DNA of 50,013 bases, from the sequence record OZ346186.1; one strand, written 5' to 3'. The notes beneath the pieces were generated by a model. The model made no database searches. It was not told the origin of the DNA and saw only the letters and a list, made by a program, of their open reading frames with translations. Positions 5,369 to 23,573 of the stretch are shown here, one piece after another. The DNA comes from a phage. The first letter of the stretch is position 1. Each line of letters begins with the position of its first letter. The position numbers and the translations under genes were made by a program.

Positions 5369-5803
5369 ATGAGTGATTATTCAGTCATTGTTGGCGCTGA
5401 GTCGCCAGGGTGCATGGTCGATTCTTCAATAATGGTGATTAACGGATCTTTCGTGTGCGGAGATGAATTTATTGCGCCAGGTAAGATTGTGCGACTATCA
5501 CATATAACAAATGGATACAAAATAGCAAGTGTTAATGGGGATCTCGTTATTGGCGTGGCAGTAAGGCCGCCGGACTCGTGCATATATGAGGAGGGCGATC
5601 CAGTTAATGTGGTTAGTCGAGGTAATGTTTGGTGCTTAACTTATGAGAGCGAAGCGCCAGAATATGGAGATAAAGTATTTGTAACGCAAGATGGAGATGT
5701 GGCATACAGTGAAGGCGACTTGCTGATTGGTTGGATCTTTACTGGCGAACATGTAAAGGTTGATCATGATTCATATATTGTCGGGGTAAGCATTGACCCA
5801 TAA
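5369..5803 (+). CDS. head structural protein (paralog of previous gene)
   Basis: 144 aa; similar Gly/Val-rich pattern to 4811..5323. Confidence 0.5.
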   Translation: MSDYSVIVGAESPGCMVDSSIMVINGSFVCGDEFIAPGKIVRLSHITNGYKIASVNGDLVIGVAVRPPDSCIYEEGDPVNVVSRGNVWCLTYESEAPEYGDKVFVTQDGDVAYSEGDLLIGWIFTGEHVKVDHDSYIVGVSIDP

Positions 5804-5815
5804 CACAAAATTATG

Positions 5816-5843
5816 TTGCACGTTTAACAAAAAATGCTATCAT
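5816..5843 (+). promoter_or_regulatory. sigma70-like promoter TTGCAC-16-TATCAT upstream of major capsid gene, with an inverted box copy in its spacer
   Basis: -35 5816-5821, -10 5838-5843; box reverse complement 5822-5840. Confidence 0.4.
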
Positions 5844-5886
5844 TGGTCCGTTACATACTAACGACCTTTATATATGGAGGAAGAAA

Positions 5887-6861
5887 ATGGAAAAAGAAAA
5901 ATTTGATCAGCTAGATGCGGATATTGTTTCTAGCTATCTGGCTACTCGCGGCGTTAAAGGTGATGCGTCAGATATGGGTATTTGGGCCGCTCAAGAACTG
6001 CATAAGATTCGCTCTAATGCTTACGAGAAAGAATATCCGGCAGGTTCAGCGCTTCGTGTATTCCCTGTAACTAATGAGCTTTCTGATACTGATAAGACTT
6101 TTGAATATCAGATGTTTGACAGAGTTGGTTACGCAAAAATTATCGCTGATTACACCGACGACCTGCCGACCGTTGACGCGCTGATGTCTAGCGAGTTCGG
6201 TAAAGTATTCCGCCTGGGTAACTCGTTCTTGATCTCCATTGACGAAATCAAGGCTGGTCAGCGCACTGGTAAGAGCCTTTCCACTCGCAAGGCAAACGCA
6301 GCGCAAAACGCTCATGATCAGGAAGTTAACCGCCTGGTGTTTAAGGGTTCAAAGCCGCATAAGATTCTTTCGGTGTTTGAACACCCTAACCTGACAAAGA
6401 TCGTGTCAACTGGTTGGTTAAGTGCTGATGAAAACACTAAGTTCCCGCAGGCAGCATCTGATGAACTGGAAAAGGCTATTGAAACCATTCAGACCATCAC
6501 CAATGGTCAGCACCGCGCAACCAATATCTTGATTCCGCCGTCTATGCGCAAGGTTCTTTCCGTTCGAATGGAAAACACCACTGAAAGTTATCTGGAATAC
6601 TTCCAGAAACAAAACAGCGGAATCACCATCGACTCAATCGCAGAGCTTGAGGATATTGATGGCGCTGGAACGAAAGGTTGCCTGGTATATGAGAAAGACC
6701 CGATGAACATGTCGATCGAAATTCCAGAAGCATTTAACATGCTTCCGGCGCAACCAAAAGATCTGCATTTCAAAGTTCCGTGCACTTCAAAATGTACCGG
6801 CCTGACGATTTACCGTCCGTTTACGCTAGTACTTATTACTGGCTTGAAAAAATCAGGTTAA
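5887..6861 (+). CDS. major capsid protein
   Basis: 324 aa; own promoter-like element upstream and strong terminator downstream; position between head accessory genes and connectors. Confidence 0.6.
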   Translation: MEKEKFDQLDADIVSSYLATRGVKGDASDMGIWAAQELHKIRSNAYEKEYPAGSALRVFPVTNELSDTDKTFEYQMFDRVGYAKIIADYTDDLPTVDALMSSEFGKVFRLGNSFLISIDEIKAGQRTGKSLSTRKANAAQNAHDQEVNRLVFKGSKPHKILSVFEHPNLTKIVSTGWLSADENTKFPQAASDELEKAIETIQTITNGQHRATNILIPPSMRKVLSVRMENTTESYLEYFQKQNSGITIDSIAELEDIDGAGTKGCLVYEKDPMNMSIEIPEAFNMLPAQPKDLHFKVPCTSKCTGLTIYRPFTLVLITGLKKSG

Positions 6862-13010: not shown

Positions 13011-13307
13011 ATGACCACATCGAATAACGACAGGGAAATCTCATTTGGCAATGGTTACACGCAGGTTGCTTCAGGAGGGTTTAACACGGTACGCAGGGAG
13101 TTTCCCATTGTCTATGTTGGCAAGGATTACAGAGACGTTGTTGACTTCCTGAATGGACACAGGCTGAAGCCGTTTTTATGGTTTATGCCTGACGGTCAAC
13201 CTGGTCTATTCAGGGTAAAATCTGGTAGCGTTGGATTAACTCCAATATCAGCAACCGTTCAGGAAGTGAAAGCAACATTTACTGAACAATTTACATCAAT
13301 GCAATAA
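13011..13307 (+). CDS. minor tail protein (lambda gpM-like)
   Basis: 98 aa from ATG 13011 (SD aaggagg); motif ISFGNGYTQ matches the gpM conserved FGDGYSQ region. Confidence 0.65.
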   Translation: MTTSNNDREISFGNGYTQVASGGFNTVRREFPIVYVGKDYRDVVDFLNGHRLKPFLWFMPDGQPGLFRVKSGSVGLTPISATVQEVKATFTEQFTSMQ

Positions 13308-15517: not shown

Positions 15518-18500
15518 ATGGCTGAAAATATGATAACGGGCAGTAAGGGTGGATCATCAAAACCTTATGTTCCGAAAGAGATGGAAGATAACCTGATCTC
15601 AATCAACAAAATCAAAATACTTCTTGCCGTTTCCGATGGTGAGTGCGATCCAAGTTTTACACTTCGCGATCTGTATCTTGATGATGTTCCGGTAATTGCA
15701 GACGACGGAACTGTTAACTACCAGGGTGTGAAAGCTGAATTTCGACCTGGAACGCAGACGCAAGATTACATCCAGGGATTTACTGACACATCAAGCGAAG
15801 TGACGCTGGCGCGTGACATTACTACATCAAATCCTTATGTAATTTCTGTAACCAACAAAACATTATCGGCTATCAGAATCAAAATGCTAATGCCAACAGG
15901 CATTAAGCAAGAGGATAACGGCGATCTTGTCGGCGTTAAGGTTACTTATGCTGTTGATATGGCTGTTGACGGAGACTCTTACAAAGAAGTATTGCTAGAC
16001 ACCATCGAAGGTAAAACGCGTTCCGGTTACGACAGAAGCCGAAGGATTGACCTTCCGGCATTTAATGATCGCGTATTGCTTAGGGTTAGAAGGGTTACGG
16101 CAGACAGCGCATCCTCTCGCGTTACTGATCTGATTAAGCTACAAAGTTACGCTGAGGTTATTGATGCAAAATTCCGTTATCCTCTGACTGGTCTTGTATA
16201 CGTTGAATTTGACAGTGAGTTGTTCCCTAACCAGATCCCTAACATTTCAATCAAGAAGAAATGGAAGTTAATTAATGTTCCGAGCAATTACGATCCGGTA
16301 ATGCGAGAGTATCACGGTTCATGGGATGGTACTTTCAAGAAAGCGTGGTCGAACAATCCGGCGTGGGTTCTTTATGACATTATCACAAACCAGCGATACG
16401 GATTAGATCAGCGAGAACTTGGCGTGCAGGTTGACAAATGGAGTCTTTACGAAGCGGCGCAATACTGCGATCAGAAAGTGCCGGATGGAAAAGGCGGTAC
16501 AGAGCCGCGTTATCTATGCGACGTTGTGATTCAAAGCCAGATTGAGGCTTATCAGCTTATTCGTGATATTTGCTCAATCTTCCGAGGCATGAGCTTTTGG
16601 AATGGCGAGAGCTTGTCAATCGTCATTGATAAGCCGCGCGATCCGTCGTACATCTTCACCAATGACAACGTTGTTGATGGTGATTTTCAGTACACAACAG
16701 CAAGCGAAAAGAGCATGTACACGCAGTGCAACGTGACGTTCGACGACGAACAAAACATGTACCAACAGGACGTAGAGGGCGTATTCGACACCGAGGCAGC
16801 ATTGCGATTTGGATACAATCCTACAAGCATAACAGCGATTGGATGTACACGCAGGAGTGAGGCTAATCGGCGCGGTCGATGGATACTAAAAACTAACTTG
16901 CGCAGCACTACGGTAAACTTTGCTACTGGACTGGAAGGCATGATCCCATCAATAGGTGATGTGATTGCTATTGCTGACAACTTTCACAGCAGCAACCTTA
17001 AGTTAAACCTATCAGGGCGCGTGATGGAAGTTTCAGGCTTGCAGGTGTTCGCTCCGTTTAAGATTGACGCGCGACCAGGTGATTTCATTATCATCAACAA
17101 GCCAGACGGGAAGCCAGTTAAGCGCACAATCTCAAAAGTAAGCGGTGACGGAAAAACCATTGAGCTAAATATTGGGTTTGGATTTGAGGTTAAACCTGAC
17201 ACGGTTTTTGCAATCGACCGCACTGATATTGCATTGCAGCAATACGTTGTAACGAGTATCGGCAAAGGTGATGATGATGATGAATTTACATACTCCATCA
17301 CGGCTGTTGAATATGACCCGAACAAATACGACGAGATTGATTATGGAGTAAACATTGACGACAGGCCAACTTCAATTGTCCAGCCTGACACAATGGCAGC
17401 GCCTGAAAATGTGCAAATATCCTCCTACTCGCGAATTGTCCAGGGTGCAAGCGTTGAAACAATGGTTGTGTCGTGGGATAAAGTACCTTACGCATCGCTG
17501 TATGAAATGCAGTGGCGAAAAGGTGATGGCAACTGGCTGAATACACCACAGACTGCAAACAAAGAAATTGAGGTTGAAGGTATTTATTCAGGAAACTACC
17601 AGGTAAGGGTTAGATCTGTTTCTGCTTCAGGTTCGACGTCGCCGTGGTCCAGAATTGTAACAGCTTCACTGACTGGTAAGGTAGGAGAGCCAGGCGCGCC
17701 AGTTAACTTAACTGCATCCGACAATGAGGTGTTTGGCATTCGTGTTAAGTGGGGGATGCCAGAAGGCAGCGGAGACACGGCATACATTGAGCTTCATCAG
17801 TCGCCGGATGGAACGGCTGAAAACTCAAGCCTGTTAACTCTGATCCCATATCCACAATATGAATACTGGCACGGTACGCTTCCGGCTGGTCATGTTGTAT
17901 GGTATAGAATCCGCAGTGTTGACAGAATCGGCAACGTTTCCGGATGGACTGATTTTGTTAGAGGCATGGCTTCAGATGATGTGGAGGCTGTTTTAGGCAA
18001 TATTCTTGATAAGATTTTTGATACCGAAGCAGGGAAGGATCTGAAAGAGAATGCCATTGATAGCGCAAACAAAATCAAGGATCAGGCGCAAAGCATCATT
18101 CAAAACGCATTGGCGAATGATGCAGACGTTAGGATTATGAGGAAGGAAAACGGAAAACGCAAAGCCGAATTCAGGCAATCAATACAGTTGATCGCAGATG
18201 AAACTGAGGCGCGCGTTACCGCAATGACGCAACTCAAGGCTGAATTTGACGAGGAAATAACTAGCGAAGTAACGAGGCTTGATCAGGCAATTGCAACAGA
18301 ATCGGAAACGCGAGCAACAGCCATTGAGGAATTGAAATCACAGATTGGAGATGATATTCAGGGGCAGTTAACGAGAGTTGAGGAGGCGATTGCAAGCGAA
18401 ACAGAGGCGCGCGTTTCTGCTGACACAGCATTAACAGCGAAGTTTGGAGATGTTGAATCAGCGTTGACGGAAAAACTTGATTCATGGGCTGGCGTTAATG

Positions 18501-18943
18501 GAGTTGGCGCACAGTACGCAATGAAACTTGGATTGACATACAACGGTCAGAAGTACAGTGCTGGTATGGTGATGCAGCTTTCGCAGGGTTCATCCGGCCT
18601 TATTTCGCAGATTTTGTTTGATGCGAACAGGTTCGCTATCATGACAAGTTCGACCGGAGGGTCGTATACATTGCCTTTTGTGGTTGAAAATAACCAAGTT
18701 TTCATTAACAGCCTGTTAGTGAAAAACGGATCAATCACAAACGCCATGATCGGTAACTTCATCCAATCAAACAATTACGTTTGGAATCAAACAGGATGGA
18801 GGCTGGATAAAAACGGAACGTTTGAAAATTATGGTTCTACTCCTGGAGAGGGGGCCATGAAAATGACAAGCGAAACGATCAGCGTTAGGGATGCAAACGG
18901 CGTTTTGCGTGTTCAGATTGGTAGGCTTACTGGTACGTGGTAA
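15518..18943 (+). CDS. central tail fibre / host specificity protein (lambda gpJ-like)
   Basis: 1141 aa, last gene of the M-L-K-I-J block; FN3-like segment and coiled-coil repeats near C-terminus. Confidence 0.8.
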   Translation: MAENMITGSKGGSSKPYVPKEMEDNLISINKIKILLAVSDGECDPSFTLRDLYLDDVPVIADDGTVNYQGVKAEFRPGTQTQDYIQGFTDTSSEVTLARDITTSNPYVISVTNKTLSAIRIKMLMPTGIKQEDNGDLVGVKVTYAVDMAVDGDSYKEVLLDTIEGKTRSGYDRSRRIDLPAFNDRVLLRVRRVTADSASSRVTDLIKLQSYAEVIDAKFRYPLTGLVYVEFDSELFPNQIPNISIKKKWKLINVPSNYDPVMREYHGSWDGTFKKAWSNNPAWVLYDIITNQRYGLDQRELGVQVDKWSLYEAAQYCDQKVPDGKGGTEPRYLCDVVIQSQIEAYQLIRDICSIFRGMSFWNGESLSIVIDKPRDPSYIFTNDNVVDGDFQYTTASEKSMYTQCNVTFDDEQNMYQQDVEGVFDTEAALRFGYNPTSITAIGCTRRSEANRRGRWILKTNLRSTTVNFATGLEGMIPSIGDVIAIADNFHSSNLKLNLSGRVMEVSGLQVFAPFKIDARPGDFIIINKPDGKPVKRTISKVSGDGKTIELNIGFGFEVKPDTVFAIDRTDIALQQYVVTSIGKGDDDDEFTYSITAVEYDPNKYDEIDYGVNIDDRPTSIVQPDTMAAPENVQISSYSRIVQGASVETMVVSWDKVPYASLYEMQWRKGDGNWLNTPQTANKEIEVEGIYSGNYQVRVRSVSASGSTSPWSRIVTASLTGKVGEPGAPVNLTASDNEVFGIRVKWGMPEGSGDTAYIELHQSPDGTAENSSLLTLIPYPQYEYWHGTLPAGHVVWYRIRSVDRIGNVSGWTDFVRGMASDDVEAVLGNILDKIFDTEAGKDLKENAIDSANKIKDQAQSIIQNALANDADVRIMRKENGKRKAEFRQSIQLIADETEARVTAMTQLKAEFDEEITSEVTRLDQAIATESETRATAIEELKSQIGDDIQGQLTRVEEAIASETEARVSADTALTAKFGDVESALTEKLDSWAGVNGVGAQYAMKLGLTYNGQKYSAGMVMQLSQGSSGLISQILFDANRFAIMTSSTGGSYTLPFVVENNQVFINSLLVKNGSITNAMIGNFIQSNNYVWNQTGWRLDKNGTFENYGSTPGEGAMKMTSETISVRDANGVLRVQIGRLTGTW

Positions 18944-18950
18944 AATCAAA

Positions 18951-18973
18951 GCGGGGCATTTGCCCCGCATTTA
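18951..18973 (+). terminator. terminator-like hairpin after J-like gene
   Basis: gcggggca tt tgccccgc then ATTTAT. Confidence 0.5.
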
Positions 18974-18986
18974 TGGAGGTTTAATA

Positions 18987-19292
18987 ATGGCTGAATATGG
19001 TGTTTCAACGTGGGATGCTAACGGGAAGTATAACAACTACGGAATCAAGCCAGTTTCCGTTGTTGGTGTCATTAGCCTTGCGGCTGGTCAGACAAGCGGA
19101 TCGTGGAGCTTTAGCATTCCAAGTGGTTTTAAGGTTGGGTATGTTGTTTCGCTTGATGAGGGTGCTAGAGGGGTTGGAAGGGAAATAGTAGCATCTGGAA
19201 ACACAATAAGAATCAGTCCTACATCTTCAGTTGGTGCAAATAGATATTCTTCTTCAAAGTGTGAGTTAGTTGTTTTTCTTGAGAGGGCTTAA
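18987..19292 (+). CDS. hypothetical tail-associated protein (MAEYG N-terminus)
   Basis: 101 aa from ATG 18987 (SD ggagg); AGG/AGA/ATA-rich codon usage. Confidence 0.5.
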   Translation: MAEYGVSTWDANGKYNNYGIKPVSVVGVISLAAGQTSGSWSFSIPSGFKVGYVVSLDEGARGVGREIVASGNTIRISPTSSVGANRYSSSKCELVVFLERA

Positions 19293-19293
19293 A

Positions 19294-19935
19294 ATGGCTG
19301 AATATGGAGCAATGTTATCTTTATCAAATGGGAATCCATTTATCACACCAAAATCAACGCCATTTTGCTTATATGGCAAGTACACTTATTCATCTTCTGG
19401 CACTTCTGCCTATCATAGCGCAAGCGCAAATATACCATTGAATCAATCTTATCCATGTATGGCATTTATAAAAACAACAAACACACAGCAGCCAACTGCA
19501 TTAATAGCTTACAGGAATGGTGGCAACATTTATGTAAACGGAGGCAATCCATACGGGCAATCATTTACAATGACTGTTTATATATTTGCCATATTCCCTC
19601 AAACTCTACCCAAATATGGTATGGCTATATGGGATGCAAGCGGCAAGTTGGTTTTAACTAATGAAAGCAGGGTGCTAACAGATCTTGTTACAATTGGTAC
19701 TCCTGGTTCTTCAGGTGGAACGAATATAGATCAAACGTTATCTGGTTCTTATGCCGTTTGCCCTTCAAGGCTTGGTGCGGTTGTAGGCATGGGTGCTTCT
19801 GACATATATACATCATGCAGGTATGATGGTTCAAGCACAAGGATAGGTGCAGCAAGGACAACGCCAGGAACAGGATCTATAACAAATAACGGAAATTCAA
19901 TAATTGCAATAAGGACTGATATTTACGACCAATGA
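19294..19935 (+). CDS. hypothetical tail-associated protein (MAEYG N-terminus, paralog-like)
   Basis: 213 aa; shares MAEYG start and a YG.AIWDASGK segment with previous gene; AT-rich. Confidence 0.5.
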   Translation: MAEYGAMLSLSNGNPFITPKSTPFCLYGKYTYSSSGTSAYHSASANIPLNQSYPCMAFIKTTNTQQPTALIAYRNGGNIYVNGGNPYGQSFTMTVYIFAIFPQTLPKYGMAIWDASGKLVLTNESRVLTDLVTIGTPGSSGGTNIDQTLSGSYAVCPSRLGAVVGMGASDIYTSCRYDGSSTRIGAARTTPGTGSITNNGNSIIAIRTDIYDQ

Positions 19936-19960
19936 AAAAGGGGCTTTCGCCCCTTTATTT
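19935..19960. terminator. bidirectional terminator between late operon and Cor-like gene
   Basis: A-tract, ggggc tttc gcccc, T-tract. Confidence 0.6.
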
Positions 19961-19964
19961 TTAT

Positions 19965-20192
19965 TTACATACTGCAATCAGCGTTTTTAAAGTTATCAAT
20001 ACTTACCCACTGAAAATTAAACGGATATCCAGCCTTAACAAGAGTGCGGTCGCCAACTCGTTTTACTCCAAAAATAGCAACTGAATACTGCATACCGCTA
20101 TTTTCATAAATAGCCGTGCATTCACGCTTAGGCATATTTGCGCAACCAGTCAGGGTTGCGGCTGCAATCAAAACGGCGATTAATTTTTTCAT
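19965..20192 (-). CDS. lipoprotein, Cor-like superinfection-exclusion candidate
   Basis: 75 aa, lipobox LTGC after 16-aa signal peptide; located just after tail genes as cor is in T1/phi80-type phages; preceded by box promoter. Confidence 0.5.
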   Translation of the reverse strand: MKKLIAVLIAAATLTGCANMPKRECTAIYENSGMQYSVAIFGVKRVGDRTLVKAGYPFNFQWVSIDNFKNADCSM

Positions 20193-20223
20193 CTTGGTAT
20201 CTCCTTAGTTGTTGTTGGTTGCA

Positions 20224-20267
20224 ACTATACACGATCTTGCGGCGGTCGTTTAGCAAAAAGTGCTATT
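20224..20267 (-). promoter_or_regulatory. conserved box (variant) + TATAGT, promoter cassette for Cor-like lipoprotein gene
   Basis: minus-strand box 20249-20267, -10-like 20224-20229, 18-nt spacer. Confidence 0.5.
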
Positions 20268-20340
20268 CTGTTCTTTTTGTTTTCCTGCGTTCTCAAATCT
20301 GCGGAGGCGTAAATTTAGCGCAAAAAGTGAGCAACAATAG

Positions 20341-20520
20341 AGCGTAATAAATACAGATAAATATATATATATATATATAAATCAATAAGTTAGCAGTATA
20401 TATATTTATATTTGTTTTTTCTTGTTATCTATGTTTTGTGTGATTTTGTGTGTCTGGTAATTTTATGTGGTTGTGTATGTGTCAGTGATTGTGTGTGTCT
20501 ATATATCTATATACGGCGCA
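20341..20520. repeat. AT-rich (TA)n and GT-rich low-complexity region with IHF-like site AATCAATAAGTTA; homolog of 40501-40720
   Basis: (TA)9 at 20361-20379; 15-mer aaatcaataagttag at 20379-20393; TGTG-rich 20431-20500. Confidence 0.6.
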
Positions 20521-20635
20521 AATGGAGGAACAAGAGAACAAAAAGACAACAAAGATATTTATCAATCACTTACATGTAAATTTTGTTATCCGATTCGCCT
20601 GGAACGTTGTTAGAACAGAAAAAACAAAATAACTG

Positions 20636-20663
20636 TTGACTAAACGCATTAAATAGCTAAAAT
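20636..20663 (+). promoter_or_regulatory. sigma70-like promoter TTGACT-16-TAAAAT upstream of exonuclease gene
   Basis: hexamers read directly at 20636-20641 and 20658-20663. Confidence 0.45.
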
Positions 20664-20692
20664 GCAGGCATACCAACAAACGAGGGCAAATA

Positions 20693-21754
20693 ATGAATAA
20701 GTTTATGGCGTACACCAGCGAAGAAATGAGCAACGAGCTTTATCACGATCCAGAAGCGTGGACGGCTGATTATGTTAGCGGTTCAAGCCTGGCAGAGATT
20801 TACAGCACATGCCCGGCAGCGTGGAAGTTCAAGCCGCGTGACGATAAGAGCAAGGCGCTAGTTTTTGGTACGCAGTCGCATACCAACTTTGAAAGCAAGG
20901 AGCTTTTCGAAAAAACTTATCGCCGTGCGCCAGCGCCAGAAGACTTTAAGGATCTGATAACCAGCCAAACGGCGCTTGCTGCAAAGCTGAAATCATTTGG
21001 CCTGAAAGGTACAACCGGAAAGACTTACCCCGAACTTATAAAAATGATGGTTGACTGCGGAGAAGACCTTAACGTCATGTGGTTAATCGACATGATCGCA
21101 GAAAGTCAGGCCAGGGCCGATGGGGTTCAGTTAATCGAGGCTAAAGATTACGATTCGTGCGTGGCAATGCGCCAGGTTCTGGAATCAATACCGGAACATA
21201 ACGCATGTATGAATAGCAAGACGGCACAGCGTGAATTATCGTTGTTCGGTGAAATTAACGGCGTAAAAGTCAAAGTGCGATGCGATCACGTTGACGTAAC
21301 AAAGAACGTCACCGCAACGCTGATTGATGGTTACGATGAAAAAGGCCAGCCGATTTGCCGCGATATTATTTATCCAGAGGCCATTGTGATCACAGACTAC
21401 AAAACTACAATGAGCGCGAATCCGGCTGAGTTTATGCGCCTGGCTTACAATCACGGCTATTATTTGAAAATGGCGTTGCAATGTGATTTATTCAGAAAAG
21501 CGTATCCAGAAGAAAAGCGACCTATAGTTGTGCGACTGTTAGCGCAAGAGAAGAAAGAGCCTTATTTGCCGTTGGCTTTCCGCATGAATAGCGAGCAGTT
21601 GAAGATCGGGCGCATTCAGTACATGAGCGTGATTAACCAGTTTGCCATGTGCCAGCAACATGACGTTTGGCCTTCGTATTCAAACGGTGAGCCTGAGGTT
21701 TGCCTTGATACTCCTGATTGGGTGCGCCGCCAGTTTAAGCAATATCTTATTTAA
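20693..21754 (+). CDS. recombination exonuclease (PD-(D/E)xK, RecE/lambda-Exo-like, putative)
   Basis: 353 aa; ITDYK motif; adjacent to Erf and SSB genes. Confidence 0.45.
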   Translation: MNKFMAYTSEEMSNELYHDPEAWTADYVSGSSLAEIYSTCPAAWKFKPRDDKSKALVFGTQSHTNFESKELFEKTYRRAPAPEDFKDLITSQTALAAKLKSFGLKGTTGKTYPELIKMMVDCGEDLNVMWLIDMIAESQARADGVQLIEAKDYDSCVAMRQVLESIPEHNACMNSKTAQRELSLFGEINGVKVKVRCDHVDVTKNVTATLIDGYDEKGQPICRDIIYPEAIVITDYKTTMSANPAEFMRLAYNHGYYLKMALQCDLFRKAYPEEKRPIVVRLLAQEKKEPYLPLAFRMNSEQLKIGRIQYMSVINQFAMCQQHDVWPSYSNGEPEVCLDTPDWVRRQFKQYLI

Positions 21755-21835: not shown

Positions 21836-22114
21836 ATGGAAAACAAGCAAGTGTCAGAGGTGGCAGTTCATATCAACAATTTTGCAACTGGCATGGCTAT
21901 GTTGCTTCGTGACTTTGTGGCGCCACTTGATCCAACTGCAGGCGAAGAAGAAATGGAGTACATCAGAAAAGTAATTGATGCGGTCGATAACGTCGTACTT
22001 ATTGCAACAATGAGCGAAGACAACGATGAAGCAATCAAGGCGGTAAAAGAAAGTTCTGATCGCATGATGGAAAATCTGATTAAATTACACACCAAAGAAG
22101 AAACAAAGCACTAA
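21836..22114 (+). CDS. hypothetical acidic protein
   Basis: 92 aa, Asp/Glu-rich; SD gtgagga; lies between exonuclease and Erf. Confidence 0.55.
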   Translation: MENKQVSEVAVHINNFATGMAMLLRDFVAPLDPTAGEEEMEYIRKVIDAVDNVVLIATMSEDNDEAIKAVKESSDRMMENLIKLHTKEETKH

Positions 22115-23306: not shown

Positions 23307-23330
23307 AAAGGGGCATTACGCCCCTTTTTC
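23307..23330. terminator. bidirectional terminator between SSB and minus-strand gene
   Basis: AAA ggggc attac gcccc TTTTT. Confidence 0.6.
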
Positions 23331-23573
23331 ACTTTCAGCCATTCCAAGCACGGCAATAACCTTAACAGCAATTCTCTTTGCAAGTTCAGTTTGATGAGCG
23401 TTCAGCTTTCCAGTGGTCATTATTGACAACATTCCGCTCATACTTCCAAGCCCGTTAAAATCTGACATTGCCGATTTCATTATTGATATTGGCGAATGAC
23501 CTTCATCAGCTATTTTGTGCGCTCTCTCTGACAGGTCTTTAACTACCTGATCTATTCCTTCACTTTTCGTCAT
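23316..23573 (-). CDS. hypothetical protein
   Basis: 85 aa; SD aagga upstream of ATG at 23573. Confidence 0.5.
   Translation of the reverse strand: MTKSEGIDQVVKDLSERAHKIADEGHSPISIMKSAMSDFNGLGSMSGMLSIMTTGKLNAHQTELAKRIAVKVIAVLGMAESEKGA

Follow-up and report, generated by a model that had tools for sequence, protein, structure and literature searches.

The gene pair downstream of the J-like fiber gene as a probable FhuA-recognition module of a T1-like siphophage

The cor cassette was described by Wietzorrek in 2006 for the phages T1, HK022, N15, ES18, and phi80, all of which use FhuA, and it is absent in relatives that do not use FhuA, as far as this work is summarized in PMC13164509. In Drexlerviridae, Dhillonvirus, and lambdoid phages, the allele found at the "RBP locus downstream of gpJ" tracks the use of FhuA (PMC8594841; bioRxiv 10.64898/2026.04.02.716166; PMC13164509). 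A 2026 preprint confirmed the link between this locus and the receptor with genome-wide screens and calls the porin-specific modules after gpJ unrelated families (10.64898/2026.04.02.716166). For phage JLBYU60, which carries the same pair of proteins (here termed A, the smaller one, and B), multimer models dock both proteins on the tip of the spike, the best complex with FhuA is obtained for a 23-kDa "hand-like" protein, and A is taken to be the Ig-like C-terminal domain of gpJ in detached form (PMC12309495). Lewis et al. took J itself as the receptor-binding protein (RBP), and in the cryo-EM map of T1 the distal J fiber and gp31/gp32 are not visible (PMC11945409). Structural searches for the pair returned no matches in a further study, which suggested a role in exclusion (PMC13164509).

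The locus analyzed here agrees with the T1-type cassette in its place after J, gene order, orientation, protein families, and the convergent cor, and nothing essential sets the two apart. The allele belongs to the Hanrivervirus subgroup, and its B lacks a ∼12–16-residue insertion (around residue 165) that is present in most members of the B family. The C-terminal receptor-binding domain of lambda gpJ would serve the same function at the tip of the same fiber. The RBP of Oekolampad (Bas18; RBPoeko), solved on LptDE (PDB code 9RPT; PMC12685063), shares its three-dimensional fold with the model of B. In contrast to B, however, it comprises 321 amino acids, is encoded on the opposite strand without an A-like partner gene, and binds LptD. 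In the BtuB module of Bas04 and Bas06, every component has a homologue in the locus analyzed here. The two are alike in their YG hairpin starts, a terminal ...YD, the lipoprotein signal peptide, and a nearly identical J tip, whereas the BtuB module differs in the opposite strand, the order lipoprotein–small–large, a similarity below BLAST detection, and its specificity for BtuB.

T5 pb5 consists of one polypeptide of roughly 640 amino acids. The T5 system is alike in its logic: pb5 is a monomeric RBP that sits non-covalently on a trimeric central fiber and binds FhuA, and the periplasmic lipoprotein Llp blocks FhuA (PMC9586334). However, no sequence relation of pb5 to A or B was detected, and its locus lies elsewhere in the T5 genome; pb5 is an analogue and not a relative.

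The window, i.e. the whole stretch of phage DNA that was analyzed, comprises 50,013 nucleotides (sequence record OZ346186.1). The features of the locus are collected in Table 1. J, A, and B lie on the same strand, with 44 nt between the J stop and the A start and a single base between A and B, and a GGAGG ribosome-binding site precedes ORF A. A promoter scan of positions 18700–20800 found 6 promoters versus 6.4 expected from shuffles and thus indicated no separate promoter for A and B. The counterparts in T1 are gp32, gp31, and cor, and RefSeq notes equate gp32/gp31 with N15 gp22/gp23 and with HK022 proteins. In T1, the site matching the hairpin behind J is annotated as a rho-independent terminator. 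Neither A nor B matched a Pfam family at E ≤ 1 or an NCBIfam family at E ≤ 0.1.

Table 1. Features of the receptor locus (positions in the window)
Feature	Position	Strand	Evidence
J-like gene, gpJ-like central tail fiber/tip attachment protein, 1141 aa	15518–18943	+	Pfam matches exceeding cut-off (FNIII-A_GpJ, Phage-tail_3, Phage_Tail_Tip); PHROG 31 "central tail fiber J"
GC-rich hairpin GCGGGGCAnnnGCCCCGC in the J–ORF A gap; left cassette edge	18951–18968		Terminator scan, reported on minus strand
ORF A, 101 aa, small β-sandwich, candidate tip protein	18987–19292	+	PHROG 557, E 3.8e-30; orthologue of T1 gp32/N15 gp22
YGVSTWDANGK hairpin motif, A residues 4–14	18996–19028	+	BLASTP, profile alignments, motif HMM
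ORF B, 213 aa, two-domain all-β, candidate FhuA-binding RBP	19294–19935	+	PHROG 425, E 1.8e-68, full length; orthologue of T1 gp31/N15 gp23
YGMAIWDASGK, internal motif copy, B residues 108–118, start of second domain of B	19615–19647	+	BLASTP, profile alignments, motif HMM
Terminator-like hairpin between convergent B and cor	19937–19956		Terminator scan; T1 annotated terminator at equivalent place
cor, superinfection-exclusion lipoprotein, 75 aa, lipobox LTGC	19965–20192	-	NCBIfam equivalog NF047972 "phage exclusion lipoprotein Cor", 66 bits vs cut-off 31; PHROG 1119, E 1e-26
Exchangeable receptor cassette (A, B, and mature part of Cor)	18958–20142		blastn vs Bas06 KarlJaspers

The cassette locus, which has already been published, is 99.9% identical to that of the deposited Escherichia phages herni and vB_EcoS_G29-2 (Drexlerviridae, Tempevirinae, Hanrivervirus), and the window phage is, judged from its sequence, a Hanrivervirus. 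Thirteen GenBank records (MG065636–MG065688) named "Campylobacter phage A14b/A13a/A136..." with C. jejuni as host also show 95–97% nucleotide identity to the locus; these are probably mislabeled or contaminating coliphages. Between cor and a recE-like exonuclease gene lies a ∼450-nt AT-rich intergenic stretch (20250–20700, GC about 0.30), which is conserved in Bas06. The early or middle promoters of the recombination genes are probably located in this stretch. Further downstream, the RefSeq entry of herni names a 92-residue ORF (window 21836–22114, plus strand) "tail length tape measure protein" and gives the same name to a small ORF beside the real tape measure gene, both implausible, propagated annotations.

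Homologues of A, B, and Cor were found in T1, Bas03, Bas05, and Bas09, all four of which are FhuA phages, whereas tblastn at E ≤ 1e-3 detected neither A nor B homologues in Bas04 and Bas06, which are BtuB phages (receptor assignments of the BASEL phages from PMC8594841, supplement file 5). Identities to the proteins of these four FhuA phages are 58–68% for A and 55–89% for Cor; in T1, tblastn gave 58% identity for A (E = 3e-36) and 54% for B (E = 1e-64). The gene layout after J is the same in these four phages and in JLBYU41, a Hanrivervirus for which FhuA dependence has been shown experimentally (PMC10373560) and whose A, B, and Cor are 99, 97.6, and 96% identical to the window proteins. A homologue of B is also present in Bas17 KarlBarth, another FhuA phage. 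A, B, and cor carry the features of the FhuA-type cassette, namely position and strand after gpJ, membership in PHROG 557 and PHROG 425, and a convergent cor. The pattern of homologues and the near-identity to the FhuA-dependent JLBYU41 indicate that the receptor of the window phage is almost certainly FhuA. The first-pass annotation had suggested receptor-binding or fiber-accessory proteins from the position of the two genes downstream of the central fiber gene. This reading is supported, as the pair represents the FhuA-tracking allele of the locus after gpJ and the fold of B is nearest to the RBP 9rpt_C. The pair is the already described FhuA-associated pair of T1-like and lambda-like phages, and the finding is real and essentially known.

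The resemblance between A and B, from which that annotation had started, is borne out by the translations. Both proteins begin with MAEYG, and the internal motif of B resembles the start of A (Table 1). A pairwise alignment extends this similarity beyond the first 5 residues, if narrowly: BLASTP aligned residues 1–14 of A with residues 105–118 (E = 6e-4) and 1–14 (E = 0.14) of B and returned only such short matches. For the family comparison, sets of 110 B relatives and 105 A relatives were collected and aligned. The hairpin (Y/W)G-x3-(W/Y)D-x2-G is kept in 57/63 sequences of the A family and 84/87 of the B family, and in the six frames of the window a motif HMM built from both families matches only the start of A and the internal copy in B (scores 31.8 and 24.0, with 5.6 for the next best). 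The strict WDA-type motif HMM does not pick up the N terminus of B, whose likeness to A rests on MAEYG...NGxP and on a profile alignment over 79 columns.

In this profile alignment, the A family was compared with the N-terminal half of B (p = 1.3e-4, probability 54%). The family profiles also align the N terminus of A with the start of the second half of B (p = 1.6e-5 to 7.9e-5). In the AlphaFold models, the six strands of A (residues 24–31, 38–41, 48–55, 65–70, 73–78, and 92–100) nearly match in position those of the first domain of B (residues 25–33, 41–48, 55–62, 69–75, 78–85, and 92–99). The 79-column alignment and the correspondence of the six strands are moderate evidence that A is probably a paralogue of the first domain of B. 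Apart from the hairpin, no similarity between the two halves of B was detectable (E = 0.29), so that a three-fold internal repeat is not demonstrated. An exhaustive search of 1.84 billion representatives with the A profile returned about 60 stand-alone proteins of ∼100 residues, some fragments, and a few giant repetitive proteins. No B-like protein of ∼210 residues was among them, and the search thus adds no independent proof that A corresponds to a domain of B. Foldseek of A against BFVD likewise gave no clear B-like match and found mainly other siphovirus proteins of ∼95–125 residues, including one of Pseudomonas phage 98PfluR60PP.

Two segments near the C terminus of J, ISVRDANGVLRV and GWRLDKNGTF, had been picked out by eye as hairpins of the A/B type and were dropped, because the motif HMM has no match in J. 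A 139-residue ENA protein (P0213) from a 1.37-Mb bacterial contig joins the C terminus of J (...VQVGRLTGCSD) in frame to an A-like start (MAYGIQTWDASGK...), after which a frameshift follows. It looks like a decayed prophage that has lost the intergenic region between J and A and, being a frameshifted remnant in a bacterial contig, was rejected as an argument for a J–A fusion.

The structure predictions proposed as a check in the first-pass annotation were made for both proteins. A is modeled as a single β-sandwich (AF2, pLDDT 86) and B as two all-β domains (pLDDT 91.5). The predicted model of B is closest in fold to 9rpt_C, an experimentally proven siphophage RBP, with a sequence identity of 14% in the structural alignment with RBPoeko. 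At the sequence level, no similarity was detectable between the B profile and the Bas18 RBP (hhalign E = 0.16). Searches of PDB sequences with A, B, and the B-family profile found no relevant relative, the hits being a stretch of lambda gpI (E = 0.83) and an enoyl reductase (E = 0.27); pb5 was not matched at E ≤ 10, although pb5 structures are present in the PDB.

The internal motif of B is modeled as a β-hairpin (strands 111–113 and 119–122) and lies in the stretch of residues 91–160, the most conserved of B. The motif of A lies in the most conserved yet least confidently modeled part of A. In both proteins, residues 11–30 are among the most conserved blocks and have the lowest pLDDT. Conservation together with poor modeling of the first ∼20–30 residues is the behavior expected of a segment that becomes ordered on a partner. 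Poor order has likewise been noted for the tail-proximal parts of RBPoeko and T5 pb5 (PMC12685063).

Comparison of the family profiles links the FhuA-type pair to modules for other receptors. The BtuB module of Bas04 FritzSarasin and Bas06 KarlJaspers consists of an 89-residue lipoprotein and proteins of 91 and 204 residues. The B family aligned with the profile of the 204-residue family over 199 columns (probability 96.9%, E = 1.5e-10), and the A family aligned with the 91-residue protein (probability 90%, E = 1.7e-6), a relationship that BLAST-level searches miss. The small BtuB protein starts with MA(Q)YGYAIYD, whereas the large one starts with MYGMQI..DG, carries an internal HGIAFYNxxG, and ends with ...YD as in B. 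These alignments argue that the modules, at least those for FhuA and BtuB, are diverged relatives and not unrelated families.

The YncD module of Bas10 carries the same motif at the same positions as A and B: its 101-residue protein starts with PGLQAWDASGNL, and its 217-residue protein contains YLDVFDASGNLV near residue 105. Full-length profile similarity between the large YncD protein and B is not significant (E = 0.02). Within this module of Bas10 IsaakIselin (L009, positions 5506–6473, minus strand), the N-terminal hairpin of the small protein and the internal hairpin of the large protein share an identical DASGNLV. The motifs thus seem more similar within the YncD module than between modules, which could reflect co-evolution or gene conversion.

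The claim of the first-pass annotation that both genes are rich in AGG, AGA, and ATA codons was confirmed by codon statistics against the other 70 ORFs (Fisher's test). All 12 arginine codons of A and B are AGA or AGG, compared with 176/730 (24%) in the other ORFs (p = 5e-8), and 14/23 isoleucine codons are ATA, compared with 138/956 (14%; p = 6e-7). The second gene, noted as visibly AT-rich, has a GC content of 0.396 versus 0.440 for the window, and its GC3 (0.272) is the lowest of all 72 ORFs. GC3 of A is 0.327, against 0.445 ± 0.058. The cassette as a whole has a GC content of 0.403, as low as in only 4.4% of windows of equal size. Two small genes elsewhere in the window (13011–13307 and 23316–23573) are also rich in AGA/AGG or ATA (5/6 arginine codons and 5/7 isoleucine codons). 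Richness in rare codons is therefore not unique to A and B, though B is the extreme in GC3.

The same rare-codon and low-GC3 bias relative to the neighboring J is found in the orthologues of T1, Bas03, Bas05, and Bas09 (50–68% protein identity), a distance at which synonymous sites can be assumed to be saturated. A bias common to orthologues so diverged looks like a lasting property of the module and less like a mark of recent import. It looks maintained, and the cause may be selection for low or slow expression or the circulation of the module in a gene pool richer in AT.

Comparison with Bas06 KarlJaspers, a phage of the same genus that uses BtuB, delimits the cassette. In blastn, identity is 94.5% up to position 18318 and 84.5% over 18384–18957, no similarity is found over 18958–20142, and 93.6% identity resumes from 20143. 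The break identifies A, B, and the mature part of Cor as a swapped cassette. Because this stretch is replaced wholesale in a BtuB-using phage of the same genus, the foreign origin suggested for the pair holds in the sense of a horizontally exchanged cassette; the codon and GC3 bias does not look like a sign of recent import.

The left border of the cassette is the hairpin just after J, and the right border lies 49 nt inside cor. These first 49 nt of cor (20143–20192, minus strand) are ∼94% shared with the otherwise dissimilar exclusion lipoprotein gene of Bas06. The position of this border accounts for the signal peptide MKKLIAVLIAA..LTGC that the dissimilar Cor and BtuB-module lipoproteins have in common. 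On the other side of the cassette, the C-terminal 80 residues of J are almost the same whether a phage uses FhuA or BtuB, and a C terminus that is near-invariant across receptors fits a common docking platform. J itself differs in length (1141 residues versus 1192 in Bas06) and shows the drop from 94.5 to 84.5% identity in 18318–18957. Over its last 250 residues, J shares 96% identity with Bas09 (FhuA) and 89% with Bas04 (BtuB). Going by these alignments, the distal segment of J has its own mosaic history that is only partly coupled to the receptor cassette.

Based on the correlation with receptor use, the similarity in fold, and the in silico complexes of others, we assign a probability of about 0.78 to the reading that A and B form the FhuA-specific host-recognition module of a T1-like siphophage, which travels with its cognate exclusion gene cor. 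A and B are most likely a detachable receptor-binding tip of the tail. Both proteins would be made late together with the tail genes, as suggested by their position on the same strand after J, the GGAGG motif in front of A, and the start of B one base on. They would then dock non-covalently onto the far tip of the trimeric J-like fiber, whose C terminus is almost invariant, probably via the conserved N-terminal arms that are poorly ordered in the monomer models. Fold, correlation, and published modeling suggest that B binds the FhuA barrel on its extracellular side and thereby makes adsorption irreversible. A, as a single β-sandwich and probable paralogue of the first domain of B, may serve as an adaptor or a second subunit of the tip. 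In the infected cell, Cor would block FhuA from the periplasmic side, as is known for the Cor family. Comparison of the genomes shows that A, B, and mature Cor are exchanged as a unit, with the 3′ end of J including the hairpin and the signal-peptide codons of the exclusion lipoprotein as conserved flanks for recombination, and this exchange would be the route by which close relatives switch between FhuA and BtuB.

Rather than being part of the virion, A and B could be membrane-associated morons (accessory proteins) that work in the infected cell and contribute, with Cor, to superinfection exclusion, as proposed in PMC13164509. Both always accompany cor, and the names of their PHROGs imply an outer-membrane or membrane-associated moron of the Lom/Bor type. 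However, neither protein has a signal peptide, a lipobox, or a transmembrane segment, whereas Cor has a clear lipoprotein signal. The maximal Kyte–Doolittle values (19) are 1.05 for A and 0.93 for B, the MAEYG... N termini are acidic and not hydrophobic, and the models are soluble β-sandwiches. The two genes point the same way as the tail genes and almost abut them, and cor converges on them. In addition, the fold of B matches an RBP, and the homologous proteins of the BtuB module keep the same conserved end segments beside an almost identical J tip. We therefore consider a moron function quite improbable. A role of one or both proteins, most plausibly A, as assembly chaperone for the J tip or for B that is absent from the finished virion appears somewhat less remote, yet still unlikely. 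No chaperone family (Tfa or Caudo_TAP) was found within the Pfam and NCBIfam thresholds given above, A is well conserved among phages, most of all in its N-terminal arm, it is apparently related to the first domain of B, and published multimer models place it on the tip of the spike (PMC12309495). For B, the similarity to RBPoeko makes the chaperone role inapplicable.

The likeness of A and B might also be a matter of chance or low complexity, and the codon bias noise from short genes. In line with this, the pairwise matches span just 14 residues, the halves of B are mutually dissimilar, and the exhaustive A-profile search found no B-like protein. The hairpin, however, is kept in nearly all members of both families and is unique to two sites in the window, the BtuB and YncD modules show the same arrangement of motifs, and the codon bias is highly significant and reproduced at four orthologous loci. 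Chance is thereby effectively refuted already. As part of the preferred reading of A and B as a receptor-recognition module, the MAEYG start and the YG-x3-WDA-x-GK hairpin are likely conserved structural or docking elements of a superfamily.

A more far-reaching scenario, which we regard as speculative and rather unlikely, is that a single ancestral pair, one small and one large protein, gave rise to the FhuA, BtuB, YncD, and LptD modules, that A and B form a pseudo-trimeric cap, and that the rare codons hold the cap at approximately one copy per virion. If this were true, A, the first domain of B, and the second domain of B, which all start with a hairpin of the YG...(W/Y/F)(D/N)xxG kind, would offer three equivalent elements to the three-fold tip of J, and the cap would turn a symmetric fiber into a single asymmetric receptor-binding surface.

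To the described picture, the present analysis makes small additions: the fold link between B of the FhuA module and the solved LptD-binding RBP, the full-length homology of the large FhuA and BtuB proteins despite their opposite orientation, the right-hand junction within the lipoprotein signal peptide, the persistence of the codon bias across orthologues, and the probable paralogy of A and a domain of B. These additions leave the current picture unchanged and speak against the "membrane protein" annotations propagated in databases and against the recently suggested role in exclusion (PMC13164509). For the window phage, the practical yield is a confident prediction of FhuA as the receptor and the exact borders of the cassette. 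The short length of the locus and its defined recombination flanks make it attractive for the retargeting of phages. It decides on the outer-membrane receptor for a large group of coliphages, including T1-like laboratory contaminants, Dhillonvirus, and lambdoid prophages such as N15 and HK022.
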